This document shows positions 3,544 through 62,670 of a DNA stretch of 64,000 nucleotides, one piece after another. The translations under genes and the position numbers were made by a program. The first letter of the stretch is position 1. Every line of letters begins with the position of its first letter. Below the pieces are notes generated by a model. The model made no database searches. It saw nothing but the letters and a program-made list of their open reading frames with translations, and was not told where the DNA came from. Source of the stretch: Escherichia coli (GTDB taxonomy: Bacteria; Pseudomonadota; Gammaproteobacteria; Enterobacterales; Enterobacteriaceae); assembly GCF_009931435.1 (NCBI RefSeq), contig NZ_CP043414.1; one strand, 5' to 3'.

Positions 3544-6500
3544 CAATGACATACTCCTGCTTGTTCAAAATAATATTGATAGATTACCCCTAATTGCTGT
3601 GGGGCTTGCTGATAGTGAAATTCAAAAAGCGCAGACAGTTGATGTATCAGGTTATTATCTTTTTGGGTTAACAGCGCTGCGACTAACATCAAATTAAAAC
3701 GTTTTTCAAGCCGTGAGTGATATTTATCTTCAATCCAAAGCTTATTAAAAACAGATTTTAACTCTGGAGTAATAGCACTAGACCAAAGTTCTTTAGGGAA
3801 GATACTGATACGCCCAAAGCTGTCGGGGTTCCTTAATAGCATCTGTTTAGCTTCATTAAACTGCTCACGACTAACAGTTGGCAATACATCACAACCGGTT
3901 GGTAGGCTCTCACTATATGTAAGTAACATATTCGCAATGGGAGCCAGCCGACGATCGATATGTGCACGATGGTTCATAAAAGCAATAAAGGGTTGCAATA
4001 TATGTAATGCTAATGTTTTATCGTTAATCTGTTTTTCCAGATAAGTCCAACATTTTTGGAAAACATCTTTCCAGATTGAAACGGGAATCCATCCCCATGA
4101 AAAGGGTAATTCTTCCTGTATATCATAAATCGTATCGCTATCACCAGAAAGACATGATGATATTAACAATTGAACAACCACGCGGTAATTACTCGAAATA
4201 CCTCTGAACAAGTCCAGATCCAGCAAGGATAAGCCATTATTCATTTTGTACTTCTTAATATACTCTGTTAATAAACAGCAATAATTTTGCAATGGGTTGT
4301 TATCTATTTCAAAAATTAGCTCATTAAAATTTTTTTTGCGCTGTTCTGGGTCTGCTTCGCATAGAGCATTTAGTAATAAATCATTTGTCTGCAATACAGG
4401 TAGCATCCATTTAATTACTGGTGCAATGCGAGCTGTACCATCAAGTTTTCCCACAATTAACCATGGACTATCCTGAACATTCAGAGCTGAAAGATCATAA
4501 GCAAATTCATCTTTTTTTAGCAATGATTTGTGTAAGCCAGGATCCTTAAGAGAAATAGCATCAACAACCAGTTCGTCTATTCTATTTGCAGGAAAAACAA
4601 CAGAATTTTTTATATCAACCAGCAACCCTTGATCGTGTTCAATAAAACTACCATCGTAGCGTTTAATATTGAGTGTTGCTTTATCCTTTCCAAATCTGTC
4701 AGAGTAAAAATCAACACATAATGTACTATTGCTGTTCCATGCACATGCCAGCATAGCATTTAGCAAATTATAGTTCTCATAAAGTGAAATTTGTTGTAAT
4801 TTGTCATTGCGTCCTGATAAAAGAGGAAGGTCGGCATGTAAATAACGGAATTTTTCAGCTACTGGATTTTCATCCAATAACTCGATATTAAGATATCCTC
4901 TTCCAGCACATGATATGGTTAATAACTCAGCATCTATTCCATGCAAATGTGCTATAGATGCCACACCATCAAAATGAACAGAACCATCATTAGTTACAAA
5001 TCGGCCACCGCTAACCGGCTTAGGTAATAATAGTTTAAGATTAGAACCATCTTTCCAGGAGACCCGTAAATCAACGGTATTTTCCAGCATCTGCGATGAA
5101 TTATAATAAATAGCACACTCGTTTTGTGAATAATCGGACTTAAGTGTTACTTTTTCATTGTTTGAATATTTATCAATTCTAGTATCCGTTATACCAGAAA
5201 GCATAATAATGCCTTGCTGAGCACTCTCAGGTATAATATTAATATCGAAGTCTGCTGGTAAAACTACAACTTTACCGCTAAATAAAACCTCATCATTAAC
5301 TATTCGCCGGACTTCTATCTGTCCTTTTGGCATTTCTGATGCGACAGAATACCAGGCATTGTTACCTGAACGAATGGAACGCCAAAAAAGTTCTTTCTCC
5401 GGTACAATGCCATATTGCAGATCCTTTTTCCAACCGATCTTCGGCCAGGCTCGATGGACAGGATAATCCGATTTAACCAGTTCAACTTCTGTCGATTTAA
5501 TATAATATTCAATCGCAGAATCATAAAGTTGCTGGGTGCGAATTGTACAAACAGCACCATCATGTAAAACAACGCTAAATACTCCACTTATTTTAGTTAA
5601 GCTGCGTTCACTGTTTTTCAGCAACCTTGGGATATCAAACTCACCTTCTCCACTAATATCTAAATGGCTATTTTTCGGTAGCGAAATAAACAGAGCATTT
5701 AGCCTGGAACTCACAGACCCCATACCGACAAGTTTTAGCTGCGATTCACTCTCATTCATCGCTTCAAAAACCCAGGGGAGTTCTTCAGTAAGTTCATAAC
5801 CGCCTTTTGGAATTGTGTGGCCTAACAGAATTGGACCTTCATGAAGCGACAACGAGATTTCGGCCATTGCATCTGCACCAGAGAGCTTTTGCATCGCAAT
5901 AGGTAATAACTCGACCCGCCAATCTTGCTGCTCATAACGGCTTAGCATTGCCAACCTTGCCCCGCCATTTCTCCATTTTCCTGAAATGATGAGTCGGGTC
6001 TGCTCCGGCTGAATATGGCATTCAAACAAAGAGGTTAACTGTTCTGTACGCATTGTGGCCGGGAATCGGAACCGGGCATCACAATACCAACTGTCATCAA
6101 CATCGACCCAGATTCTTTCAACCTGAAGACTACTTGCACTGCGTATTTCAGAAGATTGAGAAAGTAATCGCCTTACAATCTCTGCAGCATTCGCTTCGGG
6201 GAGAACGAGTGGAAGTTGAAGATGCCAGTCTGGAGAGAGCTTACGTAATGCAGAAACGGGATCACTGCTTTGAGGTGGATGCTCACTAAGTAATCGGCAG
6301 AGAGTCTCGCAGAATTCACCGGCTATTTCATAGACCAGTTCGTTTTGCATTGTGACAGGAATCGTATCGCCTAATTCTTGTGCAATTTTAGCGGCAGGAT
6401 ATTGAGATGCTTGCCCACGAAGCGCCTGATATATCCTTCTGAAATAGGTAATCAAATAACCGCTCTCATTTTCAATCATGCGGATAGGTAAACCACCTTC

Positions 6501-6902
6501 ACAAGCCAGTGTATGCAGATAACCCGAAGCTTGCCCCAGGTTTCTTATCTTTCTTTTCCAGTAGCGAATGCCATCATTAACCAGCTTCTGTCGATGAACA
6601 TACGGAACTTTCCAGTCAATAGAATCTAAAATTGTGTCCCATTTAGGGTGTCCGACCGTATGAGTCCGGCGGATAAACTCTGCGGCATATATGCTAAATA
6701 GAACATCGCTATAGGAAATGAATATCGTTCTTGGATAACTACGAGGGGCATATGTACGCAGTAGTTCTGCCAAACTTTCGTACTCTGTATCAGTACAACG
6801 GTAAGCATATAACGCCCGTCCATCAGCTCCGGATAATGAACGGCGACTAAAAAACATGTTAAGCCATTGCAAAAGTGGGTTAACTGGAGTTTTCACAAGC
6901 AA
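3543..6902 (-). CDS. Hypothetical 1119-aa protein, no recognisable motifs; upstream partner of the helicase (candidate DruH-like)
   Basis: Single long ORF in track; AT-rich; its TGA stop overlaps the helicase ATG (ATGA at 3541-3545), implying translational coupling. Confidence 0.6.
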   Translation of the reverse strand: MLVKTPVNPLLQWLNMFFSRRSLSGADGRALYAYRCTDTEYESLAELLRTYAPRSYPRTIFISYSDVLFSIYAAEFIRRTHTVGHPKWDTILDSIDWKVPYVHRQKLVNDGIRYWKRKIRNLGQASGYLHTLACEGGLPIRMIENESGYLITYFRRIYQALRGQASQYPAAKIAQELGDTIPVTMQNELVYEIAGEFCETLCRLLSEHPPQSSDPVSALRKLSPDWHLQLPLVLPEANAAEIVRRLLSQSSEIRSASSLQVERIWVDVDDSWYCDARFRFPATMRTEQLTSLFECHIQPEQTRLIISGKWRNGGARLAMLSRYEQQDWRVELLPIAMQKLSGADAMAEISLSLHEGPILLGHTIPKGGYELTEELPWVFEAMNESESQLKLVGMGSVSSRLNALFISLPKNSHLDISGEGEFDIPRLLKNSERSLTKISGVFSVVLHDGAVCTIRTQQLYDSAIEYYIKSTEVELVKSDYPVHRAWPKIGWKKDLQYGIVPEKELFWRSIRSGNNAWYSVASEMPKGQIEVRRIVNDEVLFSGKVVVLPADFDINIIPESAQQGIIMLSGITDTRIDKYSNNEKVTLKSDYSQNECAIYYNSSQMLENTVDLRVSWKDGSNLKLLLPKPVSGGRFVTNDGSVHFDGVASIAHLHGIDAELLTISCAGRGYLNIELLDENPVAEKFRYLHADLPLLSGRNDKLQQISLYENYNLLNAMLACAWNSNSTLCVDFYSDRFGKDKATLNIKRYDGSFIEHDQGLLVDIKNSVVFPANRIDELVVDAISLKDPGLHKSLLKKDEFAYDLSALNVQDSPWLIVGKLDGTARIAPVIKWMLPVLQTNDLLLNALCEADPEQRKKNFNELIFEIDNNPLQNYCCLLTEYIKKYKMNNGLSLLDLDLFRGISSNYRVVVQLLISSCLSGDSDTIYDIQEELPFSWGWIPVSIWKDVFQKCWTYLEKQINDKTLALHILQPFIAFMNHRAHIDRRLAPIANMLLTYSESLPTGCDVLPTVSREQFNEAKQMLLRNPDSFGRISIFPKELWSSAITPELKSVFNKLWIEDKYHSRLEKRFNLMLVAALLTQKDNNLIHQLSALFEFHYQQAPQQLGVIYQYYFEQAGVCH

Positions 6903-7113
6903 CCTGCCTTCCTTTGATACAATTCGTAACAGGTTACTATCATCATAAAAAAGCTCAACCCGATGAACTCGCTAAAAATGAGACAAATCATTTATATCTC
7001 GAAAAAACTTGTTACAATCATGAGCGCTACACCGAACTTAACCATATAAATTATGTGCGTTTTGTTTATTTTTTAAACAATTACAACTATCCATTATTTA
7101 CACAGGTATCAAA

Positions 7114-8766
7114 ATGTTAGCGCAGCTTTTTGAGCAGTTGTTTCAATCGATAGACTCTACACTGATCACCAATATTTTCATCTGGGCTGTTATATTCGTA
7201 TTTTTATCAGCGTGGTGGTGTGACAAAAAAAATATACATAGTAAGTTTAGAGAATATGCTCCAACCTTAATGGGGGCATTAGGTATTCTGGGTACTTTCA
7301 TTGGTATTATTATTGGGTTACTCAATTTTAATACTGAAAGTATTGATACCAGCATCCCCGTATTATTAGGCGGCCTAAAAACAGCATTCATTACAAGCAT
7401 TGTAGGTATGTTTTTTGCCATTTTATTTAATGGAATGGATGCTTTCTTTTTTGCCAATAAACGAAGTGCGTTAGCAGAAAATAACCCTGAATCTGTTACA
7501 CCTGAACATATCTATCATGAATTAAAAGAGCAGAACCAGACTCTGACTAAATTAGTCTTGGGTATTAACGGTGATAGTGAAGGTTCTCTTATTGCTCAAA
7601 TAAAATTACTACGTACTGAGATTAGCGATTCCTCGCAGGCACAATTAGCTAATCACACTCATTTCAGTAATAAGCTTTGGGAACAACTTGAACAATTTGC
7701 AGATCTAATGGCAAAAGGTGCTACAGAACAAATTATTGATGCTTTACGACAAGTCATTATTGATTTTAATGAAAATTTAACTGAACAGTTTGGTGAAAAC
7801 TTTAAAGCACTTGATGCCTCTGTAAAAAAACTTGTTGAGTGGCAGGAAAATTATAAAACGCAAGTTGAGCTGATGTCAGAACAATATCAACAAAGTGTCG
7901 AGTCTCTGGTTGAAACAAAAACTGCGGTTGCCGGGATTTGGGAAGAATGTAAAGAAATTCCTCTGGCTATGTCTGAACTGCGTGAAGTGCTTCAGGTGAA
8001 CCAACATCAAATCAGCGAACTCTCCCGCCATTTAGAAACCTTTGTCGCTATCCGCGATAAAGCTACAACCGTATTACCTGAAATACAGAACAAAATGGCT
8101 GAAGTGGGTGAACTGCTGAAATCCGGAGCTGCAAATGTTAGTGCATCTCTTGAGCAAACCAGCCAGCAAATACTTCTTAATGCAGATTCAATGCGCGTGG
8201 CCCTGGATGAAGGTACCGAAGGATTCAGACAATCGGTTACCCAAACACAACAAGCATTTGCCTCGATGGCACATGATGTCAGCAATTCCTCCGAAACTCT
8301 AACCAGCACGTTAGGTGAAACAATTACTGAAATGAAACAAAGTGGTGAAGAATTCCTGAAGTCACTAGAGTCGCACTCGAAAGAATTGCATAGAAATATG
8401 GAACAAAATACGACTAATGTAATTGATATGTTCAGTAAGACTGGTGAAAAGATTAACCATCAACTATCCAGTAATGCCGATAATATGTTTGATTCAATCC
8501 AGACATCATTTGATAAGGCAAGTGCAGGGCTGACTTCTCAAGTCAGAGAATCAATTGAAAAATTTGCTCTATCCATCAACGAGCAGTTACATGCTTTTGA
8601 GCAAGCAACTGAACGTGAGATGAACCGTGAAATGCAATCATTAGGTAATGCTCTGCTTTCAATCAGCAAAGGTTTTGTCGGTAACTATGAAAAACTTATT
8701 AAAGATTACCAAATAATTATGGGACAGTTACAAGCATTAATTTCTGCTAATAAACATCGAGGGTAA
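7114..8766 (+). CDS. zorA: MotA/ExbB/TolQ-like membrane protein with long coiled-coil tail; ZorA-like (Zorya)
   Basis: Three N-terminal hydrophobic helices (LITNIFIWAVIFVFLSAWW, LMGALGILGTFIGIIIGLL, IPVLLGGLKTAFITSIVGMFFAILF) followed by about 440 aa of Q/E/L-rich heptad-like sequence; first gene of a three-gene operon. Confidence 0.65.
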   Translation: MLAQLFEQLFQSIDSTLITNIFIWAVIFVFLSAWWCDKKNIHSKFREYAPTLMGALGILGTFIGIIIGLLNFNTESIDTSIPVLLGGLKTAFITSIVGMFFAILFNGMDAFFFANKRSALAENNPESVTPEHIYHELKEQNQTLTKLVLGINGDSEGSLIAQIKLLRTEISDSSQAQLANHTHFSNKLWEQLEQFADLMAKGATEQIIDALRQVIIDFNENLTEQFGENFKALDASVKKLVEWQENYKTQVELMSEQYQQSVESLVETKTAVAGIWEECKEIPLAMSELREVLQVNQHQISELSRHLETFVAIRDKATTVLPEIQNKMAEVGELLKSGAANVSASLEQTSQQILLNADSMRVALDEGTEGFRQSVTQTQQAFASMAHDVSNSSETLTSTLGETITEMKQSGEEFLKSLESHSKELHRNMEQNTTNVIDMFSKTGEKINHQLSSNADNMFDSIQTSFDKASAGLTSQVRESIEKFALSINEQLHAFEQATEREMNREMQSLGNALLSISKGFVGNYEKLIKDYQIIMGQLQALISANKHRG

Positions 8767-8772
8767 TCGATC

Positions 8773-9480
8773 ATGGATAAGATTATAGGGAAACAATTAC
8801 CTAAAAAAGATCAAGATAATGAACACTGGGTATCCATGTCAGACCTAATGGCAGGGCTGATGATGGTTTTTATGTTCATATCTATTGCTTATATGCACTA
8901 CGTACGTATTGAAAAAGAAAAAATTAAAGAAGTTGCCGTAGCCTACGAGAATGCTCAGTTACAGCTTTATAATGCTCTGGATATTGAGTTTGCAAAGGAT
9001 TTACAAGACTGGGATGCAGAGATCGATAAACAGACTCTGGAGGTTCGATTTAAATCACCGGATGTTTTATTTGGCTTAGGAAGCACAGAGCTAAAACCAA
9101 AGTTTAAACTCATTCTTGACGACTTCTTTCCTCGCTACCTAAAAGTTCTAGATAATTATCAGGACCATATTACTGAAGTCCGCATTGAAGGTCACACAAG
9201 TACTGACTGGACAGGAACAACGAATCCTGATATTGCTTATTTTAATAATATGGCACTATCACAAGGTCGTACACGTGCAGTATTACAATACGTTTATGAC
9301 ATAAAAAATATCGCGACACACCAACAATGGGTTAAAAGTAAATTTGCCGCAGTAGGTTATTCATCTGCACATCCCATTCTTGATAAAACCGGCAAGGAGG
9401 ATCCTAATCGCTCTCGTCGTGTCACCTTCAAAGTTGTAACAAATGCCGAATTGCAGATTAGAAAGATTATTCAGGAGTAA
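8773..9480 (+). CDS. zorB: MotB/OmpA-like peptidoglycan-anchoring protein; ZorB-like
   Basis: N-terminal TM segment (LMAGLMMVFMFISIAYM) and C-terminal OmpA/MotB-like region (NMALSQGRTRAVLQYV, NRSRRVTF); starts 6 nt after zorA stop. Confidence 0.65.
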   Translation: MDKIIGKQLPKKDQDNEHWVSMSDLMAGLMMVFMFISIAYMHYVRIEKEKIKEVAVAYENAQLQLYNALDIEFAKDLQDWDAEIDKQTLEVRFKSPDVLFGLGSTELKPKFKLILDDFFPRYLKVLDNYQDHITEVRIEGHTSTDWTGTTNPDIAYFNNMALSQGRTRAVLQYVYDIKNIATHQQWVKSKFAAVGYSSAHPILDKTGKEDPNRSRRVTFKVVTNAELQIRKIIQE

Positions 9481-9483
9481 GAG

Positions 9484-10587
9484 ATGAAATTATCTATCGA
9501 CATTTCAGAACTTATTCAATTAGGGAAGAAAATGTTACCAGAAGGAGTCGATTTTTTTCTGGATGAATCCCCTATTGACTTTGATCCTATAGATATTGAG
9601 TTATCCACGGGTAAAGAAGTTAGTATCGAAGATCTTGACCCTGGTAGCGGGCTTATCTCTTATCATGGCCGCCAGGTTCTTTTATATATTCGGGACCATT
9701 CAGGGCGTTATGATGCGGCTATCGTAGATGGCGAAAAAGGAAAACGTTTTCATATTGCCTGGTGCAGAACTCTTGATGAAATGCGCCATAAAAATCGATT
9801 TGAAAGGTATCATGCAACTAACCGCATAGATGGTTTATTCGAAATTGATGATGGTTCAGGTCGGAGCCAGGATGTTGATTTACGGGTATGTATGAATTGC
9901 CTCGAACGACTTAATTATAAAGGAAGTATTGATAAACAACGAAAAAGAGAGATTTTTAAATCATTCTCATTAAATGAGTTTTTTTCAGATTATAGTACCT
10001 GTTTTCGTCATATGCCTAAGGGTATCTATGACAAAACAAATAGTGGGTATGTCGAAAACTGGAAAGATATATCTAAATCAATACGAGAAAAGGCAAATTA
10101 TGTTTGTAATGATTGTGGCGTGAATTTATCAACCGCCAAAAACTTGTGCCATGTCCATCATAAAAATGGCATCAAATATGATAATCACCATGAAAACCTT
10201 CTTGTTCTGTGCAAGGATTGCCATCGAAAACAGCCCCTCCACGAAGGTATATTCGTTACCCAAGCTGAGATGGCTATCATTCAACGTTTACGTTCCCAAC
10301 AAGGGTTATTAAAAGCAGAATCCTGGAATGAAATATATGACCTGACTGATCCATCAGTGCATGGTGATATTAATATGATGCAACATAAAGGCTTTCAACC
10401 TCCTGTTCCTGGGTTAGATCTTCAAAACTCAGAACATGAAATTATTGCAACCGTAGAAGCTGCATGGCCAGGCCTTAAAATTGCAGTTAACCTTACTCCC
10501 GCCGAAGTCGAAGGATGGAGAATATATACCGTGGGTGAGCTGGTTAAAGAAATACAAACAGGAGCCTTTACGTCAGCAACGTTGTAA
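9484..10587 (+). CDS. zorE: HNH endonuclease-domain protein; ZorE-like (Zorya type II effector)
   Basis: C-terminal HNH signature CNDCGVNLSTAKNLCHVHHKNG...NHHENLLVLCKDCH; starts 3 nt after zorB stop. Confidence 0.6.
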   Translation: MKLSIDISELIQLGKKMLPEGVDFFLDESPIDFDPIDIELSTGKEVSIEDLDPGSGLISYHGRQVLLYIRDHSGRYDAAIVDGEKGKRFHIAWCRTLDEMRHKNRFERYHATNRIDGLFEIDDGSGRSQDVDLRVCMNCLERLNYKGSIDKQRKREIFKSFSLNEFFSDYSTCFRHMPKGIYDKTNSGYVENWKDISKSIREKANYVCNDCGVNLSTAKNLCHVHHKNGIKYDNHHENLLVLCKDCHRKQPLHEGIFVTQAEMAIIQRLRSQQGLLKAESWNEIYDLTDPSVHGDINMMQHKGFQPPVPGLDLQNSEHEIIATVEAAWPGLKIAVNLTPAEVEGWRIYTVGELVKEIQTGAFTSATL

Positions 10588-11413: not shown

Positions 11414-12064
11414 TTAATTTGATTTATTTGCATCCATCAACGCTTTTAACTGCTCCGGCGAAAACGGTGGTTTGCGTCGGTGCAACATCGCATGGCAATT
11501 AGGGCACACAGGAAGCAAATCATTAACTGGATCCAGCTGGTAATTCTCTTTAATGGCTGAAAGCGGCACCAGGTGATGCACATGGATAAAGCCTTCAGCG
11601 ATATCACCATAGATCTTCACCAGATCAACGCCGCATACGTTGCACTGGCATCCATGATGTTCGACCGCTTTATCTCGGGCCTTTTTATCGCGTTCATAGC
11701 GGTTTACTGTCACCTTTATCGCCGCACCTTCAACGTATGTCTCCTGCGACGGCAACTCATCCGGGAACAGAACGTCGGCTATGGGAGCCGCAGCGGCTTT
11801 ATCCTGATGAATATGAAATCCCTGCTCTATGAGTAGTTTGACGCATTTAGATTTTATTCCGCCGGTGAAATCCGCAGGGGTAAATTGCGTCCCCGTCATC
11901 AATGTCGCTGCGATGCCAGCAATCGCCTTCGAGGGGTAACGTCGGCCATGATATTCAATCTCATACAACCGCGCAGGCTGGAACTGATGAGTTTCTCCCG
12001 CATCCCATAAATGGATAGCTTCGATGATATACCGCCGCGGAAGATGATCAGGGAGTTTATTCAT
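11414..12064 (-). CDS. HNH endonuclease with about 140-aa N-terminal domain of unknown function
   Basis: C-terminal HHGCQCNVCG...HVHHLVPLS...NDLLPVCPNCHAMLH (zinc-finger HNH); N-terminal region has no motif I recognise. Confidence 0.7.
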   Translation of the reverse strand: MNKLPDHLPRRYIIEAIHLWDAGETHQFQPARLYEIEYHGRRYPSKAIAGIAATLMTGTQFTPADFTGGIKSKCVKLLIEQGFHIHQDKAAAAPIADVLFPDELPSQETYVEGAAIKVTVNRYERDKKARDKAVEHHGCQCNVCGVDLVKIYGDIAEGFIHVHHLVPLSAIKENYQLDPVNDLLPVCPNCHAMLHRRKPPFSPEQLKALMDANKSN

Positions 12065-12143
12065 GGAGAATGTCCTTATACGTTCTCAGAACAGGCAGCA
12101 AAAAAACAAATGAGATCAAGGTAATATATCTTCACTTGCAGGC

Positions 12144-13073
12144 TTGAACAGCAGAAAATTTGCGAGCATGATCGCAATTATTTCACTGCCAGGGATATCA
12201 ATGGCTTCCAGTAAATCGCTACAGCAGGCAATTGCCAATATAAAAATCTGGCACAAGGGTGAACAGCGCGCGCCGCATAAGCCATTGTTATTGCTATACG
12301 TATTAGCGGGATACCTGAATGGACATCCGCGCCTTTTCGATTATGGCTCGGAAATCTACGAACCTCTGCACAGTTTACTGGAACGTTTTGGGCCACAGCG
12401 TTCACAGTACCGACCTGATATGCCGTTCTGGCGATTACAAGGCGACGGATTCTGGCAATTACACAATGCCGAACTTTGCTCAACAGCAGGGAGTAGCCGA
12501 CAACCGCCAGTGAAGGAACTGACCGAACACCGCGTTGCAGGCGGTTTCGATGAACAGCACTATGCCCTGGTAATCGGCAATAAAAAACTCATCAATACCC
12601 TGGCGCAACAGATACTCGAAGCGCACTTCACCGAGAGCATTCAGGAAGAAATTGCTGACGAGCTGGGTTTTGATCTCCAGCAAATCCGTAAACAGCGCGA
12701 CCCGTTATTTCGCAAACTTGTATTGCGCGCATATAACTACCAGTGCGCGATATGTGGCTTTAATATGCGCCACGATGACACCACCGTCGCACTGGAAGCA
12801 GCGCATATAAAATGGAAACAGCACGGCGGTCCTTGTGAAATTCCTAATGGCCTGGCGCTTTGTGCAATACACCATAAAGCCTTTGATAAAGGATCGATTG
12901 GCCTGGATGAAAATATGCGGGTACTGGTCTCGGATGCGGTAAACGGCGGAGGGATCGTTGAGAAACTATTCTGGGATTTTGACGGGAAAACTATTGCGTT
13001 ACCACAGGTGCGTAAAAATTACCCTTTTGAGGGGTTTGTGGAGTGGCATCGAAAAGAGGTTTTTAGGGGGTGA
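12144..13073 (+). CDS. HNH endonuclease with about 190-aa N-terminal domain of unknown function (start may be a downstream Met, e.g. 12201)
   Basis: HNH signature CAICGF...AAHIKWKQHGGP...NGLALCAIHHKAFDKG; divergent from the 216-aa HNH gene across a 79-bp spacer. Confidence 0.7.
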   Translation: MNSRKFASMIAIISLPGISMASSKSLQQAIANIKIWHKGEQRAPHKPLLLLYVLAGYLNGHPRLFDYGSEIYEPLHSLLERFGPQRSQYRPDMPFWRLQGDGFWQLHNAELCSTAGSSRQPPVKELTEHRVAGGFDEQHYALVIGNKKLINTLAQQILEAHFTESIQEEIADELGFDLQQIRKQRDPLFRKLVLRAYNYQCAICGFNMRHDDTTVALEAAHIKWKQHGGPCEIPNGLALCAIHHKAFDKGSIGLDENMRVLVSDAVNGGGIVEKLFWDFDGKTIALPQVRKNYPFEGFVEWHRKEVFRG

Positions 13074-13114
13074 GGTTGATAACTATCGCAGTATGTTCAA
13101 TATTGCTGACATAA

Positions 13115-13297
13115 TCAGTGCAGGATCTTGCCGCTAGTTTACAACTCGCCTTCGATAGCGGCGCAAAACGAGTTCTGTTGCCGATATCCTCGGCTATGGA
13201 TATTCCAACAGTTCCGGCAGAGTTGTTTACCAAGTTTCAGGTAAGTTTTTACTCAGAACCGGTTGATGCGGTTTATAAGGCGCTGGATGTGAATTAA
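13115..13297 (+). pseudogene. C-terminal remnant of a Lon-like protease gene (possibly BrxL-like), no start codon
   Basis: Open frame with no Met translates to SVQDLAASLQLAFDSGAKRVLLPISSAMDIPTVPAELFTKFQVSFYSEPVDAVYKALDVN, resembling the extreme C-terminus of Lon-family proteases (compare Lon AAHRGGIKTVLIPFENKRDLEEIP...). Confidence 0.4.
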
Positions 13298-13628
13298 CAC
13301 ATTCCTCAGCTTATTTACAAAAGGATTATTCCCATTTGATATAATATCAGTGCCAATTTACTTTTTTCAATGGAATATATCTCGGCTAAATAACAATAAA
13401 ACTTATCGCTAATGGATTAAATAAACAATTTTCTAATTTATTTCACCACCTTTGATATAGAAATTGATGGTGTTGTCGCTGCCATTGCTTATGGTGATGA
13501 TAAAATCCACGTTTCTGGATCGGTGCGTAGAAAATCATCACTTCCTTGATATTTTGATGCGATATGATCATACCGTTCCGTAGTACCAATTTCAACTTCA
13601 GGCTAAACCCCAACATTAAAAAAATTAG

Positions 13629-13672
13629 AGTTATTCACTGATTATATTATCAATAATATAATCAGTGAATAA
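13629..13672 (-). terminator. Perfect 20-bp inverted repeat immediately downstream of the 682-aa gene, followed on the minus strand by a T-run; likely intrinsic terminator
   Basis: gttattcactgattatatta / tcaa / taatataatcagtgaataac; minus-strand downstream sequence ctctaatttttttaatg. Confidence 0.5.
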
Positions 13673-13695
13673 CATGGACTATATAATAAATTGCT

Positions 13696-15744
13696 CTAAT
13701 CATTTCCCTTACGAATATATGGGCCAAAAGCCCAAGAATCATAATAAGGGTGATGGACTAATTTTTCATTAAATCGAACACTATAAGTTAATTTTTTTAT
13801 ATTTTTACGTACAGCATTAATACTGGGCAAAGAGGAAAGATAATCTATAAACTTATCGATAGTGATTTTCCCTTCGCAACACTCAAACCCATCAATGATA
13901 TTTTTCGCCATTTTTCCATTTTCATTTGTTTGATATATCACTCCAGGTATTCGTTGAAAAAAACTAGATAATGCATATTTGTCCGCTACATATGTATCAT
14001 CCACATGATATTTCCCACCGAGCATAGTTGTAGTAACAATAAGCTTATACACACCTTTGGGTTGCCATGTTGATGGTAGTTCGAATTCTTTAATGATCAC
14101 ATCAAGATGATTAAGATAATGTTCAGAAATTCGATTTATTTGTTGAAAATAAGAACGCATAAATTTATTATTATGATCATGTATTAATGAGCTATCTCCA
14201 ACGATGTTACACACTTGCTGATAGTACTTACCATAATATATTGGTTGACCATTTGATTTTAGTTCTGTAAAAATCAAACAATCATCCAGGAGAATCACGC
14301 AATCGCACTGATAATTAGCATGAGCATCAATTGGAGAAGCTTTAATCCCCGCATCACGAACTTGTTTTATAAATTGTTGCTCATGAAATCGCCCTTTACT
14401 TGCTTGAGAAATTTTTTTGGAACCAAATAATGACATTAGAGAGCGAGTCACTGAGCTATTTGCTATTAATGCAGGCATTAAGCATAAACCGTCCATACAG
14501 GGAATAAATGGGCAATCATTAAGATCATGTGATTTTGAATTGAAGGTAAAATAATCTATCAGTTTTTTTGCTGCATCTGCTGCAATCCCCTTACGTTGAA
14601 AGAATGATAACCAACTCTCACGGCTTTTTATGACCAGCCAGCGATCCAACTGTAGGGGTATAGGTTTTGTCGATGAAAATCTTTTGCTCATTTCTTCTTT
14701 AGATAACTCGACTAAACATTGATAAGCGTGCACCCAATTAAATAATGATATATTCCCATATTCTTCATGAAGGTCATCAGGAGACATATTTTCCAACTCG
14801 CTTAAATGAAATGAGCTAAAAACGCCATCAGAATTTAAGTAAGATGGCATATGATCCTTTACCCAACTATTTAGATGAAAATGTTTGTTACTAAATTCAT
14901 GAACTTCGCTATATAGATGTGACGCTCTCATCATTAGTCTATTTCTTGCAATCTCATAATCTCGGTATAAACAAAAACTATCAACCTCAAGAGAGTAAAT
15001 GTTATTATCCAATTTTGTAAATACTGCACTACTTAGTCTGAAAAAGTCTCTTACTCTGCTTAATGAGTCAAAAACATTCCACTCATTAAGGTACCCTCCC
15101 ATTGAAAGCAAGGTTTGTTTATTCACACAAGAAGTTAGTTTCAATGGCCCATGAGTCCGTAAATAAGAAAATATTCTTCCGGTGTAATTGGCTACCTCAT
15201 CAAATGCCCTATCGATAACTCGAAAATATTCGATATCAGGTTCAGCATGAATATTAATATTTTCAGAAACGATAAATAATGGAAAAATCCTCTTCATTTT
15301 TTTAGGATCATTGACCACAACCAAGGATGATAATGATGATAAAAACATCTCACAAAACATGATGAGATTAAGTATTAATGCATGTGATTTTTTTGTATTT
15401 TTACGCCAAATACCAGCACATTTTGCAGCCCCAAAGAAAGAATTATTTATATCATGCATAATTTTACATTGACTCTCGAACTCAGAGATTAGTTCAATGT
15501 TATCAGGAAATGAGTTTACTAGCTCATTAATACATTTTTTGAATGTATTGTTATACTCAACTTCAGTCTGAACTGAAAATCTATTATAATAGATGGAAGA
15601 TATTCTCAGCACATCCAAGGCGATATCTATACTAATATCATCTCTTTTTATGTACTCACAAAAAAAAGAACAAAACTGTTTCGGGTCGTTAGCAAGATTA
15701 CTAATTCTAGTGGTATCATAAACTTTTTCCATTTTTCCATACAT
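13696..15744 (-). CDS. Hypothetical 682-aa protein, very AT-rich, no confident domain assignment
   Basis: Single long ORF flanked by more than 600 bp of AT-rich non-coding DNA on each side; possible PD-(D/E)xK-like motif CDCVILLDDCLIFTELK in the C-terminal third (weak). Confidence 0.6.
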   Translation of the reverse strand: MYGKMEKVYDTTRISNLANDPKQFCSFFCEYIKRDDISIDIALDVLRISSIYYNRFSVQTEVEYNNTFKKCINELVNSFPDNIELISEFESQCKIMHDINNSFFGAAKCAGIWRKNTKKSHALILNLIMFCEMFLSSLSSLVVVNDPKKMKRIFPLFIVSENINIHAEPDIEYFRVIDRAFDEVANYTGRIFSYLRTHGPLKLTSCVNKQTLLSMGGYLNEWNVFDSLSRVRDFFRLSSAVFTKLDNNIYSLEVDSFCLYRDYEIARNRLMMRASHLYSEVHEFSNKHFHLNSWVKDHMPSYLNSDGVFSSFHLSELENMSPDDLHEEYGNISLFNWVHAYQCLVELSKEEMSKRFSSTKPIPLQLDRWLVIKSRESWLSFFQRKGIAADAAKKLIDYFTFNSKSHDLNDCPFIPCMDGLCLMPALIANSSVTRSLMSLFGSKKISQASKGRFHEQQFIKQVRDAGIKASPIDAHANYQCDCVILLDDCLIFTELKSNGQPIYYGKYYQQVCNIVGDSSLIHDHNNKFMRSYFQQINRISEHYLNHLDVIIKEFELPSTWQPKGVYKLIVTTTMLGGKYHVDDTYVADKYALSSFFQRIPGVIYQTNENGKMAKNIIDGFECCEGKITIDKFIDYLSSLPSINAVRKNIKKLTYSVRFNEKLVHHPYYDSWAFGPYIRKGND

Positions 15745-16421: not shown

Positions 16422-16506
16422 TGGTGCCGAAGGCCGGACTCGAACCGGCACGTATTTCTACGGTTGATTTTGAATCAACTGCGTCTACCGATTTCGCCAC
16501 TTCGGC
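16422..16506 (-). tRNA. leuX: tRNA-Leu (anticodon CAA), leuX
   Basis: Minus-strand sequence GCCGAAGTGGCGAAATCGGTAGACGCAGTTGATTCAAAATCAACCGTAGAAATACGTGCCGGTTCGAGTCCGGCCTTCGGCACCA, with T-loop GGTTCGAGTCC and 3' CCA; matches recalled leuX. Confidence 0.9.
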
Positions 16507-26959: not shown

Positions 26960-28474
<1,515 letters not shown>

Positions 28475-42886: not shown

Positions 42887-45583
42887 TTACTGCCAGCCGT
42901 AACGACGGCTATAGAACCCTTTCACCAACTGGGTTAACGTCATATACCCTGCCAGAATCGCAACCAGCCACGGGAAATAGCTTAACGGCAGCGCCTGCAG
43001 TTGCAGATAACTGGCCAACGGCGAAAACGGCAATGCGATCCCGACTATCATCACAATCACGGTCATGATCATTAACGGCCACGATGCACAGCTCTGAATA
43101 AACGGTACACGACGGGTACGGATCATATGCACAATCAGCGTTTGCGACAGTAATCCCACCACAAACCAGCCCGACTGGAACAGCGTTTGCGTTTCCGGCG
43201 TGTTGGCATGGAATACCCACCACATCAGGCAAAACGTCAGAATATCGAAGATCGAACTGATCGGTCCGAAGAAGATCATAAAGCGCCCCAAATCCGCCGG
43301 ATTCCAACGCTGAGGCTTTTGAATTTGCTCGTCGTCGACGTTATCAAACGGGATCGCCACCTGTGACACATCGTACAGCAGGTTCTGGATCAGTAAGTGT
43401 AAAGGCAGCATCGGCAGGAAGGGCAAGAAAGCACTCGCCACCAGCACGCTGAACACATTACCGAAGTTAGAACTCGCCGTCATTTTTATGTATTTCAGCA
43501 TGTTGGCGAAAGTCCGGCGTCCTTCAATAACCCCCTCCTCCAGCACCATCAGGCTTTTTTCCAGCAGGATGATATCAGCCGCTTCACGGGCAATATCTAC
43601 CGCACCGTCCACAGAAATGCCGATATCCGCAGCGCGTAAGGCGGGCGCATCATTAATACCATCGCCCATAAAGCCAACCACATGCCCTTCGCGCTTTAGC
43701 AAGGTCACGATGCGTTCTTTATGCATCGGCGTCAGGCGAGCAAACAGCGTGGTGCGCTGTGCAAGATTTGCCAGTTCGTCGTCAGATAGCGTTTCAATAT
43801 CACTACCAATGACCACCTCTCCCGCGTCCAGTCCCACTTCATGGCACACTTTCGCCGCCACTAACTCGCTGTCGCCAGTAAGGATTTTCACGGTAATGCC
43901 ACTCGCTTTTAATGCCTTCAGTGCCGGAGCTGTTGTCTCTTTCGGCGGATCAAGGAAAGCAATATATCCTTCGAGGATCAGGTCGGATTCATCCGCCCGC
44001 TGGTAATCCCCTTCACGTGCTGGCAGGTATTTCGTCGCCACCGCAACCACGCGCAGCCCCTGACGATTCAGCGTATCAGTAACGCGCTTAATCTTACGCA
44101 GTATGATGTCATCAAGCGGCACAATCTCACCATTGTGACGCACCTGCGAACACACATTGAGGATTTCCTGCAATGCGCCTTTGCAAACCAGTTGATGATG
44201 TTCGGTATTCTCTGCCACTACCACCGACATCCGGCGACGCTCGAAATCAAACGGAATCTCATCAATTTTTTGCCAACGACTGGCCAGCGAGCGCGCTGAC
44301 TCTTCATCCGTACCTTCGAGCACCGCTGTATCAAGCAGGTTTTTAAGTCCGGTCTGATAATGACTGTTCAACCACGCGCTATGCAGCACGCGTTCGCTGG
44401 TTTTACCGGAGATATCGGTATGATTCTCCAGCACAATTTTATCCTGCGTCAGGGTGCCGGTTTTATCAGTGCACAGAATATCCATAGCGCCAAAGTTCTG
44501 AATGGCATCCAGATGTTTGACGATCACTTTCTGTTTCGACAGCTTTACGGCACCACGCGCCAGCGTCGAAGTGACAATCATCGGCAACATTTCTGGCGTT
44601 AAGCCTACCGCGACCGAAAGTGCGAACAGTGCCGCTTCCCACCAGTCACCTTTGGTGTAACCGTTGATCAGCAACACCACCGGAGCCATCACCAGCATAA
44701 AGCGAATCAGCAGCATACTGACGCGGCTAATCCCTTGCTGAAAGGCATTCGGCTCGCTTTCCTGCTCACTAACACGCCCCGCCAGTTGACCAAACCAGGT
44801 GTTGGCTCCTGTAGCAATCACCATTGCTTGTGCCGTGCCGCTCACCACGGTGGTGCCCATAAAACACAGGGTGTCGCACTCCAGCGGATTGCTGTGCTCC
44901 GGCTGGCGAGTGGTAGCAGCTTTTTCCACGGGCAGAGACTCACCGGTTAACGACGCCTGAGCGACAAACAGATCCCGCGCCTGCAAGATACGTAAATCTG
45001 CCGGGATCATATCCCCCGCCGCCAGTTTTATAATATCGCCGGGCACTAGTTGGTCTATCGGAATTTCCAGCCAGCCATTTTCACCTTTATCGTTAATTAC
45101 GCGCAGTACCGTCGCGGTATTACTGACCATCGCTTTCAGGGCATCTGCCGCTTTGGTGGAACGAGCTTCCTGAATAAAGTTCAGCAACGTAGAAATAGCG
45201 ACCATTAGCGCGATAACACCTGCGGCAAATAAATCTTCCGTGGCGTAAGAAATAGCACCGAGAATGGTGAGCAAAATATTAAAGGGGTTGCGATAGCAGA
45301 CCCATAAATGTACCCACCACGGCGACGGTTGTTGCGCGGGTAATTTATTTTCACCATGTTGTTCGCGGGCAGATTCCACTTCCGCCTGATTTAACCCTTC
45401 CGGATGGGTATTGAACGTTTTCCATAATTCCTGTTCTGGCATCACCGCCATTTTCAGGCAATGCGCACTTAAGGACGGCGGGACCGCCGTATTCACTGTC
45501 TGCTGCGCGCCAGGCAATGGATCGCGATGAACCAGACGGGAAGGTAAATGGCGAATGAGCCGGGTAAAAATTTCTTTAAACAT
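42887..45583 (-). CDS. mgtA: Mg2+-importing P-type ATPase
   Basis: 898 aa; P-type motifs DKTGTLT and GDGINDAPAL. Confidence 0.95.
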   Translation of the reverse strand: MFKEIFTRLIRHLPSRLVHRDPLPGAQQTVNTAVPPSLSAHCLKMAVMPEQELWKTFNTHPEGLNQAEVESAREQHGENKLPAQQPSPWWVHLWVCYRNPFNILLTILGAISYATEDLFAAGVIALMVAISTLLNFIQEARSTKAADALKAMVSNTATVLRVINDKGENGWLEIPIDQLVPGDIIKLAAGDMIPADLRILQARDLFVAQASLTGESLPVEKAATTRQPEHSNPLECDTLCFMGTTVVSGTAQAMVIATGANTWFGQLAGRVSEQESEPNAFQQGISRVSMLLIRFMLVMAPVVLLINGYTKGDWWEAALFALSVAVGLTPEMLPMIVTSTLARGAVKLSKQKVIVKHLDAIQNFGAMDILCTDKTGTLTQDKIVLENHTDISGKTSERVLHSAWLNSHYQTGLKNLLDTAVLEGTDEESARSLASRWQKIDEIPFDFERRRMSVVVAENTEHHQLVCKGALQEILNVCSQVRHNGEIVPLDDIILRKIKRVTDTLNRQGLRVVAVATKYLPAREGDYQRADESDLILEGYIAFLDPPKETTAPALKALKASGITVKILTGDSELVAAKVCHEVGLDAGEVVIGSDIETLSDDELANLAQRTTLFARLTPMHKERIVTLLKREGHVVGFMGDGINDAPALRAADIGISVDGAVDIAREAADIILLEKSLMVLEEGVIEGRRTFANMLKYIKMTASSNFGNVFSVLVASAFLPFLPMLPLHLLIQNLLYDVSQVAIPFDNVDDEQIQKPQRWNPADLGRFMIFFGPISSIFDILTFCLMWWVFHANTPETQTLFQSGWFVVGLLSQTLIVHMIRTRRVPFIQSCASWPLMIMTVIVMIVGIALPFSPLASYLQLQALPLSYFPWLVAILAGYMTLTQLVKGFYSRRYGWQ

Positions 45584-45850
45584 AAGGAGTCCCTCCGCAC
45601 TGTCTGAAACAGTGCAGAAATGTCTTCAGGCGTGGCGAAGCCTTACCTGAAGGTAATAAAGCTGAGCTGGGACGTTAAAACGTCACGGCCTTACGCATCC
45701 GGTAACGCCGTGAAAAGACGGGCTTACCGGAAAAGTTTTAATCTCCGTCGAGGGAGAGGCGTGGGATCAGGTTCCATATAACCTCCGGTAAGTGAAAAAA
45801 GCGCCGCAAATAATAAGGAGAATCCAATAATATTCGTGGCATTTATGGCG
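45584..45850 (-). promoter_or_regulatory. mgtA 5' leader (Mg2+/proline-sensing riboswitch-attenuator region)
   Basis: Long untranslated leader between the presumed promoter and mgtA start, containing mgtL; assignment by established knowledge of the mgtA leader, boundaries approximate. Confidence 0.55.
45724..45777 (-). CDS. mgtL: mgtA leader peptide
   Basis: 17-aa proline-rich peptide [17 protein letters not shown] (C-terminal end of track ORF 45724-45930) upstream of mgtA. Confidence 0.8.
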
Positions 45851-45959
45851 ATATAATACCTACTGGCAACTAAACCAACGATAAACCAGACTTTACCCAT
45901 TGCTGAATGCACGGGTAAAGTTAGGCTCAAATAATGAAACGCAATTACGGGACAACAGG

Positions 45960-46907
45960 ATGCAAAATCGGCTGACCATCAAAGACATCGCGCGCTTAAG
46001 CGGCGTGGGGAAATCTACGGTTTCCCGAGTGCTGAATAACGAAAGCGGCGTGAGTCAGCGCACGCGCGAGCGCGTGGAAGCAGTGATGAATCAGCATGGA
46101 TTTTCCCCTTCCCGCTCTGCGCGCGCTATGCGTGGGCAAAGCGATAAAGTGGTCGCCATCATTGTTACCCGTCTGGATTCGTTGTCAGAAAATCTCGCCG
46201 TCCAAACCATGCTGCCAGCGTTCTATGAACAAGGTTACGACCCGATCATGATGGAAAGTCAGTTTTCTCCGCAATTAGTTGCCGAACATTTGGGGGTGCT
46301 GAAACGGCGTAATATCGACGGCGTAGTGCTGTTCGGTTTTACCGGCATAACCGAAGACATGTTAGCCCACTGGCAGTCATCGCTGGTTCTGCTGGCACGT
46401 GACGCGAAAGGCTTTGCTTCGGTCTGTTATGACGACGAAGGGGCAATCAAAATCCTGATGCAACGGCTGTATGATCAGGGACATCGTAATATCAGTTATC
46501 TCGGCGTACCGCACAGTGACGTGACGACCGGTAAGCGACGTCACGAAGCCTACCTGGCGTTCTGCAAAGCGCATAAACTGCATCCCGTCGCCGCCCTGCC
46601 AGGCCTTGCGATGAAGCAAGGCTATGAGAACGTAGCAAAAGTGATTACCCCTGAAACTACCGCGTTACTGTGCGCAACCGACACGCTGGCACTTGGCGCA
46701 AGTAAATACTTGCAAGAGCAACGCATCGACACCTTGCAACTGGCGAGCGTCGGTAATACACCGTTAATGAAATTCCTCCATCCGGAGATCGTCACCGTTG
46801 ACCCAGGTTACGCCGAAGCCGGACGCCAGGCGGCCAGCCAGTTAATTGCGCAGGTAACCGGGCGCAGCGAACCGCAACAAATCATCATCCCTGCCACCCT
46901 ATCCTGA
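45960..46907 (+). CDS. treR: Trehalose operon repressor (LacI family)
   Basis: HTH IKDIARLSGVGKSTVSRVLN; start placed at MQNRLTIKD. Confidence 0.9.
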   Translation: MQNRLTIKDIARLSGVGKSTVSRVLNNESGVSQRTRERVEAVMNQHGFSPSRSARAMRGQSDKVVAIIVTRLDSLSENLAVQTMLPAFYEQGYDPIMMESQFSPQLVAEHLGVLKRRNIDGVVLFGFTGITEDMLAHWQSSLVLLARDAKGFASVCYDDEGAIKILMQRLYDQGHRNISYLGVPHSDVTTGKRRHEAYLAFCKAHKLHPVAALPGLAMKQGYENVAKVITPETTALLCATDTLALGASKYLQEQRIDTLQLASVGNTPLMKFLHPEIVTVDPGYAEAGRQAASQLIAQVTGRSEPQQIIIPATLS

Positions 46908-56304: not shown

Positions 56305-56420
56305 GGTTTGCCGGATGCGGTGCACCTGTAGGCCTGATAAGACGCATCAAGCGTCGCATCAGGCACTATGCTCAAATGCCGGATGCGGCGTGAACGCCTT
56401 ATCCGGCCTACACACACTAT
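56305..56420. repeat. REP/BIME cluster between yjgA and mpl
   Basis: Three REP-like units (gccggatgcggtgcacctgtaggcctgataagacgc..., gcgtcgcatcaggc, gccggatgcggcgtgaacgccttatccggcctaca). Confidence 0.6.
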
Positions 56421-61035: not shown

Positions 61036-62538
61036 TTACGCCGCAATGGCGTTCATGATCGCCGGAACGGAAAGCTCTGCCAGCGGGATCTCCGCAACCT
61101 GTTTGCGATCGCGCATGATAATCACCCGGTCGGCATAGCCCACCAGCTCTTCCAGTTCGGAGGAGATCACCAGCAGCGCCAGACCATCGGCGCATAGCGT
61201 TTCAATCAGGCGGATGATCTCAGCGTGGGCACCAACATCAATGCCGCGCGTTGGCTCGTCGAGGATCAGAAATTGTGGACGAGTCAGCAGCCAGCGAGAG
61301 AGCAGCACTTTTTGCTGATTGCCACCGGAGAGAAACTCAATCGGCTGTTCGGTGGAAGGTGTGCGAATGCCAAGCTGGCGGATAAAGCGTTCGGCAATCT
61401 CTTGCTGTTCTTTGCGCGAAATCGGCCGTAACCAGCCGCGCTGGGCCTGGAGAGCGAGGATGATATTTTCCCGCACCGAGGCGGCGGCGATGATGCCATC
61501 GGTTTTCCTGTCTTCCGGGCAGAAGCCGATACCCAGTACCGAAGCCTGATGTGGCGATCGCAGGATTTGCTGTTTGCCTTTGATCAACGCCGTGCCGCTG
61601 TCAGCAGGTTTGATCCCGAAGATCACTTCGGCGGTTTCGGTACGTCCTGATCCCAGCAAGCCTGCCAGGCCAACGATCTCGCCGGGGCGTACTTCGAGAT
61701 CAAACGGTGCGATCGTTCCTTTTTTGCCGTAATTTTTGAACGCGGCAACGGGTTTGTCGCTTAACAATGTTCGCCCGGCACGCTGTAGCGTGTGGGTGTC
61801 CAGCTCGCGCCCCAGCATCATTTTTACCAGTTCGATCTGCGGTAGCTCGCGGGTTTCCCGACAGCCTACGAAACTGCCGTTGCGTAAGACGGTGATCCGA
61901 TCGCTGACCTGATAGACCTGATCGAGAAAGTGAGTAACGAAGATCAGGCTGACGCCGCGATCGCGCAACTGACGCATCAGGCCAAACAGTAACTCTACTT
62001 CCTGAGTATCGAGGCTGGCGGTGGGTTCATCGAGGATCAGCACTTTGGCGGAGAGATCGATGGCCCGGCAAATGGCGACGATTTGCTGCATCGCGACTGA
62101 AAAGCGGTTGAGCGGTTCCCGCACGTCGAGGGAGAAACCGTAAGATGCCATCAGTTCGGTGGCGCGCTTTTCCATCTCTTTACGGCGTAGAAGGCCGAAA
62201 CGTTTGGGTTCGCGACCTATGAATAGATTATCAGCGACCGACATATTGGGTAGCAGGTTGACTTCCTGATAGACGGTGCCGATGCCGAGTTGTTGTGCGT
62301 GGGCGGTATTTTTCGGTGAGATAGTCTGGCCTTCCAGCCAGATGGTGCCACGATCGGCGTGGTAGACACCGGTTAATGCTTTGATTAGCGTTGATTTTCC
62401 CGCCCCGTTTTCACCGAGCAGCGCCATGATTTCACCACGGCGCAGGCTGAAATCAACGTTGTCTAACGCTTTGACGCCGGGGAAAAATTTACTTAATCCT
62501 TCGGTGCGGAGGATTTCCTGGTGTTGGTTAGTATTCAT
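61036..62538 (-). CDS. ytfR: Galactofuranose ABC transporter ATP-binding protein (tandem ABC domains)
   Basis: Two Walker A motifs (GENGAGKST, GLLGSGRTE) and LSGG signatures. Confidence 0.9.
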   Translation of the reverse strand: MNTNQHQEILRTEGLSKFFPGVKALDNVDFSLRRGEIMALLGENGAGKSTLIKALTGVYHADRGTIWLEGQTISPKNTAHAQQLGIGTVYQEVNLLPNMSVADNLFIGREPKRFGLLRRKEMEKRATELMASYGFSLDVREPLNRFSVAMQQIVAICRAIDLSAKVLILDEPTASLDTQEVELLFGLMRQLRDRGVSLIFVTHFLDQVYQVSDRITVLRNGSFVGCRETRELPQIELVKMMLGRELDTHTLQRAGRTLLSDKPVAAFKNYGKKGTIAPFDLEVRPGEIVGLAGLLGSGRTETAEVIFGIKPADSGTALIKGKQQILRSPHQASVLGIGFCPEDRKTDGIIAAASVRENIILALQAQRGWLRPISRKEQQEIAERFIRQLGIRTPSTEQPIEFLSGGNQQKVLLSRWLLTRPQFLILDEPTRGIDVGAHAEIIRLIETLCADGLALLVISSELEELVGYADRVIIMRDRKQVAEIPLAELSVPAIMNAIAA

Positions 62539-62557
62539 AGTTTCCCCCGTTGTAAAG

Positions 62558-62670
62558 CGTGCGCCAGATAAGACACAACAGCGTCGCATCAGGCATCTCG
62601 CACAACCGCCGGATGCGGCGTGAATGCCTTATCCGGCGGCCCACAAGTCGGCATCAGGCATTGATGCCCC
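62558..62670. repeat. REP/BIME cluster between ytfR and ytfQ
   Basis: gcgtcgcatcaggc and gccggatgcggcgtgaatgccttatccggc units. Confidence 0.6.

Follow-up and report, generated by a model that had tools for sequence, protein, structure and literature searches.

Does the stretch upstream of mgtA in this Escherichia coli DNA hold a complete copy of the mgtA leader with its proline-rich leader peptide MgtL, and does anything in it depart from what is known of that element? In the window, by which we mean the whole 64,000-nt stretch of DNA that was analysed, a first-pass annotation had placed such a leader at 45584..45850 without giving a strand; the leader lies on the minus strand. A whole-window scan with Rfam 15 returned a match to RF01056 (Magnesium-II / Mg sensor, 'magnesium responsive RNA element') at 45677..45792(-), with 125.8 bits against a gathering score of 40, an E-value of 5.5e-25 and coverage of positions 1-115 of the 115-position model. 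Directly downstream on the same strand lies the regulated gene mgtA (42887..45583(-), from the ORF list), whose 898-aa product matched TIGR01524, the magnesium-translocating P-type ATPase, at 1603 bits against a cut-off of 610.75, while the divergent ORF upstream encodes TreR (TIGR02405, 588 bits), an arrangement as in K-12. The assignment to the mgtA leader was thus confirmed by its RNA family and by both neighbours, and the span given for it proved essentially exact, reaching from the mgtA ATG to 3 nt upstream of the transcription start that we placed from homology at 45847. Five Rfam families in total reached the gathering score in the window, and the M-box (RF00380) was not among the matches of the whole-window cmscan at gathering thresholds. 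None of the sequence points considered contradicted the identification as an mgtA leader. We regard it as nearly certain that the stretch is the E. coli mgtA leader containing mgtL, working as a transcription-attenuation switch. The leader is already known, annotated and characterised by experiment, and the copy here is intact; as a textbook regulatory element it matters mainly as a negative result and a calibration point.

With transcription starting at 45847, the mgtA leader (5' UTR) comprises 264 nt (45584..45847(-)) and mgtL falls at leader nt 71-124, the same geometry as published for Salmonella enterica (mgtL MDPEPTPLPRWRIFLFR), for which PMC6460261 gives a leader 264 nt long with mgtL encoded by nt 71-124. 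The mgtL ORF spans 45724..45777(-), with its ATG at 45777, 17 codons and a TAA stop at 45726-45724. The peptide has proline at codons 3, 5, 7 and 9 and acidic residues at positions 2 and 4; its ORF is enclosed by stem-loop A and has its own Shine-Dalgarno sequence, GGAGG at 45782..45786(-), located 4 nt upstream of the ATG and inside the 5' arm of stem A. The mgtA Shine-Dalgarno sequence GGAGGG (45591..45596(-)), conserved across genera, precedes the mgtA ATG at 45583. The leader region from 45847 to 45581 (267 nt) had a minimum free energy (MFE) of -93.6 kcal/mol, compared with -66.1 +/- 4.7 kcal/mol in 200 dinucleotide shuffles (z = -5.8), and 0/200 shuffles folded as well.

Upstream of the leader we read a direct repeat, GGTTTA-TCGTT-GGTTTA (45871..45887(-)), which is identical to that of K-12; we take a GGTTTA-N5-GGTTTA repeat to be the PhoP-box consensus. 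A -10-like hexamer, TATTAT (45853..45858(-)), follows 12 nt downstream of the repeat, and the start at 45847 sits 6 nt past this hexamer. By pattern search, the repeat was present in 24 of the 31 related Enterobacteriaceae loci described below, 100-118 nt upstream of the mgtL ATG in 20 of them. A generic sigma-70 scan found no complete -35/-10 promoter in 45400..46100, so it is the PhoP box, with its conservation between species, that supports the promoter assignment; the missing full sigma-70 promoter would fit an activator-dependent promoter without a -35 element. The repeat is given here as a predicted PhoP site, as a PhoP-dependent promoter of mgtA would carry. The distance from the PhoP box down to the mgtL ATG is 110-112 nt in the other Escherichia sequences but 100 nt in two loci, L009 (E. 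coli E69) and L027 (E. whittamii), whose leaders would accordingly have lost about 10 nt from their 5' part.

The leader was then compared with other E. coli through a three-way alignment of the window, K-12 BW25113 and strain 2020CK-00188. The alignment to K-12, proposed at the outset as the check on the assignment, gave four substitutions in 264 nt (260/264 positions identical) and no indels. The substitutions are A for G at 45843 (leader nt 5), C for U at 45838 (nt 10), A for U at 45668 (nt 180) and C for U at 45614 (nt 234), in each case with the window base first and the K-12 base second. Between the second and third of these, the segment from 45837 to 45669 is identical to K-12, and both mgtL and the whole of stem-loops A, B and C lie within it; disruption of the mgtL ORF or of the stems, which would have spoken against the assignment, was thus looked for against K-12 and not seen. 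MgtL, described at first as intact, is nucleotide-identical to K-12 mgtL, annotated as WP_001387276.1, and in BW25113 the annotated mgtL and mgtA are spaced as in the window. In predicted folds, the changes at nt 5, 10 and 234 turn K-12 G.U pairs into A-U or C-G pairs, the change at nt 180 removes one predicted U-A pair, and the leader MFE is -93.6 kcal/mol here versus -87.4 kcal/mol in K-12. The K-12 mgtL-mgtA leader shares the locus, the neighbours and the 264-nt length with the window copy, and mgtL, the PhoP box and stems A, B and C have the same sequence in both. Outside the leader, the window copy differs in two more substitutions, located between the PhoP box and the -10 element, and in a 2-nt deletion further upstream, towards treR. 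Because the functional core is identical in sequence to that of K-12, Mg2+- and proline-dependent control of elongation into mgtA would very likely operate here as well.

Of 5426 complete E. coli genomes, 5425 were matched by a 501-nt query around the leader; wherever the match in a listed record covers mgtL, that record is annotated with 'mgtL: mgtA regulatory leader peptide MgtL'. Strain 2020CK-00188 was 100% identical over this query. Over 45500..46000, only 13 of the 5425 matching genomes were at least 99% identical, most being about 97.6% and K-12 97.0% identical; judged by these identities, the window is therefore from a less-sampled E. coli lineage. At the start of treR (45900..45960(+)), the 2-nt deletion relative to K-12 lets the frame run without a stop as far back as a TTG at 45900, giving a 335-aa ORF, and the RefSeq annotation of 2020CK-00188 has a correspondingly long TreR. 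The TreR equivalog model begins at residue 4 of the version that starts at ATG 45960 (315 aa, the K-12 length). The N-terminal extension, whose sequence would run into the promoter region of mgtA, is probably an artefact of annotation.

The first half of the leader can adopt two mutually exclusive folds, A plus B or C, and each of the three helices can pair in full in the window, in keeping with the earlier statement that the alternative stem-loops are undisrupted. Stem-loop A (45723..45792(-)), taken from the Rfam alignment and the MFE fold, is a three-way junction enclosing mgtL, in which CUUACCGGAGG (45792..45782) pairs with UUUCCGGUAAG (45733..45723); its 5' arm contains the mgtL Shine-Dalgarno sequence and its 3' arm the mgtL stop codon. 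Stem-loop B (45683..45713(-)), likewise supported by the Rfam alignment and the MFE fold, is the OFF-state structure of high Mg2+. The alternative ON-state structure of low Mg2+, stem-loop C (45699..45730(-)), was read from sequence complementarity: CCGGUAAGCC (45730..45721), from the 3' arm of A, and GGCGUUACCGG (45709..45699), from the 5' arm of B, form ten pairs with one bulged G. For leader nt 1-172, A plus B was the MFE structure at -51.8 kcal/mol, and forcing C cost 6.2 kcal/mol. A plus B was also the MFE structure of the full leader, with stem C taking over only when the transcript is 150-152 nt long and the 3' arm of B has yet to be made. When a 28-nt ribosome footprint was masked at Pro codon 3, 5, 7 or 9 or at the stop codon, stem C was not predicted, because the program allows stem A to close around the mask; these folds were weighed neither for nor against the switch.

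To collect relatives, a pattern of 20 specified bases from the start of mgtL was searched in GTDB r220 with one genome per species, which returned 33 loci. Two of these, L015 (Telmatospirillum) and L025 (Flavonifractor), were discarded as chance matches, having neither an ATG nor mgtA downstream. The other 31 are all Enterobacteriaceae, including Escherichia, Salmonella, Citrobacter, Klebsiella, Raoultella, Kosakonia, Leclercia, Yokenella, Phytobacter, Superficieibacter and others. Each carries an mgtL ORF of 16-17 aa with the form M(E/D)P(D/E)P(T/A)P(L/H)PR...(F/Y/V)R, and mgtA starts 189-313 nt downstream of mgtL in 30 of them, the 31st locus being too short to locate the start. A short DNA pattern from the uORF is enough to recover the whole family throughout Enterobacteriaceae, and the covariation within it is clear. 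In the 31-sequence alignment (A2), 95.1% of the cells of A plus B pair and eight pairs show double-sided changes; 0/500 shuffles reached the observed pairing, covariation score or double-change count, and all slid controls dropped to 36-46%. Taken singly, stem A pairs in 97.9% of cells among the 30 distinct sequences, with one compensatory change from C-G to U-A, and the part of stem A that holds the Shine-Dalgarno sequence is invariant or nearly so in the 31 sequences. Stem B pairs in 97.0% of cells, with 5 of its 11 pairs changed on both sides, and stem C in 96.3% of cells across species. In three Klebsiella species, a G-to-A change at column 75 is accompanied by C-to-U at column 6, its stem A partner, and by a change to U at column 92, its stem C partner. 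Most tellingly, one nucleotide here covaries with both of its alternative partners, the pattern that a switch predicts.

The Rfam model does not extend into the 3' half of the leader (45676..45584). The MFE fold contains two hairpins there, and both covary in a 26-sequence alignment (A3). The first, CUUCAGGU ... GCCUGAAG (45624..45652(-)), is conserved, with 89.6% of cells paired and four pairs with double-sided changes. The second is a terminal hairpin (45595..45617(-)) that abuts or overlaps the mgtA Shine-Dalgarno sequence; 94.6% of its cells pair, 6 of its 10 pairs have changed on both sides, and one of its G.U pairs in K-12 becomes G-C here through the substitution at 45614 (U in K-12, C in the window). 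Further upstream, a near-invariant GUCCC(U) motif (45668..45673(-), with A at 45668 here) is complementary to the segment AGGGAC (45594..45589) of the mgtA Shine-Dalgarno region. Within GUCCCUG, leader nt 180 (45668) is U in 28 of the 31 aligned sequences, from about 15 genera, and A in the window. The frequency of this A180 allele was determined with a 55-nt query centred on 45668, such that every 28-nt megablast seed must contain the position; it occurs in 198 of 5426 complete E. coli genomes (about 3.6%), and by this count it is a minority, lineage-associated allele and therefore not a private mutation. A minority allele in a conserved motif of the less-studied 3' half is the one unusual detail of the stretch, and a small one.

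The MFE folds join GUCCC(U) to (A)GGGAC in the ribosome-binding site of mgtA. This helix was pairable in 98% of cases across the 26 sequences, with changes that are one-sided and G.U-compatible; double-sided covariation was not found in the 26-sequence alignment, and the helix overlaps a small hairpin (45684..45671) that itself covaries, so the pairing stays speculative. It is conceivable, though unlikely, that it adds a translational or Rho-access layer to the known attenuator, which A180 would weaken by loosening the pairing, shifting basal mgtA expression in this lineage. The corresponding reading of the locus is an mgtA leader whose output is altered by U180A, through weaker anti-Shine-Dalgarno pairing or through a changed pyrimidine-rich Rho-loading region. 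In its favour, the position is near-invariant, the allele is confined to the E. coli minority given above, the K-12 MFE fold pairs U180 with A254 beside the Shine-Dalgarno sequence, and the window, in which this pair is lost, is one of only 2 of the 26 sequences where the 180-254 pair cannot form. However, since the allele is fixed in some 200 genomes that are otherwise normal, its effect can be mild at most, the long-range helix keeps five of its six pairs, and this helix, devoid of double-sided changes, competes with the covarying hairpin at 45684..45671. A literature search whose reach did not extend to the original structure papers (Cromie 2006, Hollands 2012), in which this region may already be described, gave nothing specific on Shine-Dalgarno sequestration in the mgtA leader and no description of the GUCCCU:AGGGAC pairing. 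We consider an output altered by U180A unlikely.

According to the published model of that switch, low Mg2+ would activate PhoQ/PhoP and start transcription of mgtA. With ample cytoplasmic Mg2+, mgtL would be translated to its stop, stems A and B would form, and most transcripts would end before mgtA. When Mg2+ is scarce or proline decoding is slow, the ribosome would destabilise or stall on the EPDP/Pro codons, and its failure on mgtL would let stem C replace B, so that RNA polymerase reads into mgtA. For the failure at low Mg2+, PMC11552253, PMC11282234 and PMC6460261 describe an intrinsic destabilisation of the ribosome at EPDP that EttA and bL31 oppose, and a need for EF-P and Pro-tRNA. 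The first-pass description of the leader as Mg2+/proline-sensing agrees with the published label, but whether the RNA senses Mg2+ directly or by way of mgtL translation is still debated (PMC11552253).

How transcription would end in this leader bears on a second reading, in which the locus is a classical trp-like attenuator and stem-loop B an intrinsic (Rho-independent) terminator. The combination of a leader peptide with alternative hairpins does resemble the attenuators of amino-acid operons, and Rho R66S ChIP in E. coli had no effect at mgtA (score 1.0; PMC5499598). A Term-seq data set from K-12 MG1655 (supplement of PMC7815308) lists two 3' ends in the mgtA leader, at -135 and -49 from the mgtA ATG. 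We placed both by their distance from the ATG, which is valid because the leader alignment contains no indels. The end at -135 corresponds to window position 45718 (leader nt 130), 5 nt past stem A and just before a UCUUUU run, a position that would suit such an attenuator. The end at -49 corresponds to 45632 (leader nt 216), inside the hairpin at 45624..45652, and the same supplement labels it 'riboswitch' and Rho-dependent 'Yes' with bicyclomycin. For the Salmonella mgtA leader, PMC11552253 reports Rho-dependent termination with 3' ends near leader nt 220, and the K-12 end at leader nt 216 would fit this 'position ~220'. These Rho-dependent ends stand against an intrinsic terminator. In addition, scanning 45400..46100 for terminators gave no site resembling an intrinsic one on the minus strand, which argues against a trp-type attenuator, and stem B is followed by GACGUUUUAACG, with no U-tract directly after the stem. 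We therefore judge an intrinsic terminator at stem-loop B to be very unlikely. The role of Rho itself, reported for Salmonella, is contested for E. coli mgtA termination: a review states that Rho dependence 'may not be conserved in E. coli' (PMC12360218), as the R66S result would also have it, while the model used in PMC11282234 counts on the Rho side for E. coli mgtA, together with the bicyclomycin-sensitive end in K-12.

Among related systems, the Salmonella mgtA leader, reportedly the subject of studies by Cromie 2006, Park 2010, Hollands 2012 and Gall 2016 (cited in PMC6460261 and PMC11552253), offers the same alternatives of A plus B or C, with proline at codons 3, 5, 7 and 9 and a PhoP box upstream. 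It differs in the acidic positions of mgtL, which read EPDP here versus DPEP in Salmonella, and in the C-terminal half of the peptide. The leader of corA in E. coli and Salmonella, with its uORF corL, is described with the same architecture, in which a three-way junction encloses the uORF, OFF stems A and B are opposed to an ON stem C, and Rho terminates near nt 220 (PMC11552253). In contrast to the mgtA leader, corA/corL belongs to another gene and locus, outside the window, and its uORF has a single conserved proline. The M-box (ykoK) riboswitch RF00380 is likewise a Mg2+-responsive leader upstream of Mg2+ transporter genes, but has an unrelated fold and no leader peptide.

As noted in the first-pass annotation, the mechanical ORF list shows mgtL only as the tail of a longer ORF, 68 aa from a TTG at 45930 (45724..45930(-)). 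That this frame, although uninterrupted in the window, is a real gene with 'mgtL' merely as its C-terminus is practically inconceivable and we rejected it as an artefact of ORF calls that open wherever a start codon first follows a stop: the PhoP box, the -10 element and the start at 45847 all lie downstream of its TTG, the frame runs antisense over the treR start region, it had no NCBIfam match, RefSeq has only the 17-aa mgtL in K-12 and in the 100%-identical strain 2020CK-00188, and the ORF from the mgtL ATG, with GGAGG 4 nt upstream, is 16-17 aa long with a conserved N-terminus in 31/31 loci. Mechanical ORF calling thus hides real leader peptides inside longer spurious ORFs.

Elsewhere in the window, an anti-phage defence island occupies 3..10587 beside the leuX tRNA gene (tRNA-Leu(CAA), 16422..16506(-)) and combines Druantia type III with Zorya type II. 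The Druantia genes encode DruE (3..3552(-), PDLC00037, 1359 bits, cut by the window edge) and DruH (3543..6902(-), PDLC00041, 2551 bits), and the Zorya genes encode ZorA (7114..8766(+), 999 bits), ZorB (8773..9480(+), 347 bits) and ZorE (9484..10587(+), 586 bits). Three further ORFs lie between the Zorya genes and leuX (11414..15744). The 682-aa ORF at 13696..15744(-) had no matches in Pfam, PADLOC or NCBIfam, the 216-aa ORF at 11414..12064(-) resembled a type IV restriction enzyme only faintly, and the 309-aa protein encoded at 12144..13073(+) matched NF045808, 'phosphorothioated DNA-binding restriction endonuclease', at 436 bits and Pfam HNH_2. An Rfam match to Ysr276 ('Yersinia sRNA 276', antisense) at 27521..27715(-), with 183 bits, lies wholly antisense within a 503-aa ORF (26963..28474(+)) and probably reflects coding-sequence conservation, not a separate RNA gene. 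Two matches to Rfam naRNA4, at 56331..56408(-) and 62562..62638(-) with 86 and 64 bits, are presumably REP-type repeat elements; the former lies between ORFs, and the latter overlaps the start of the ORF at 61036..62589 by 28 nt.
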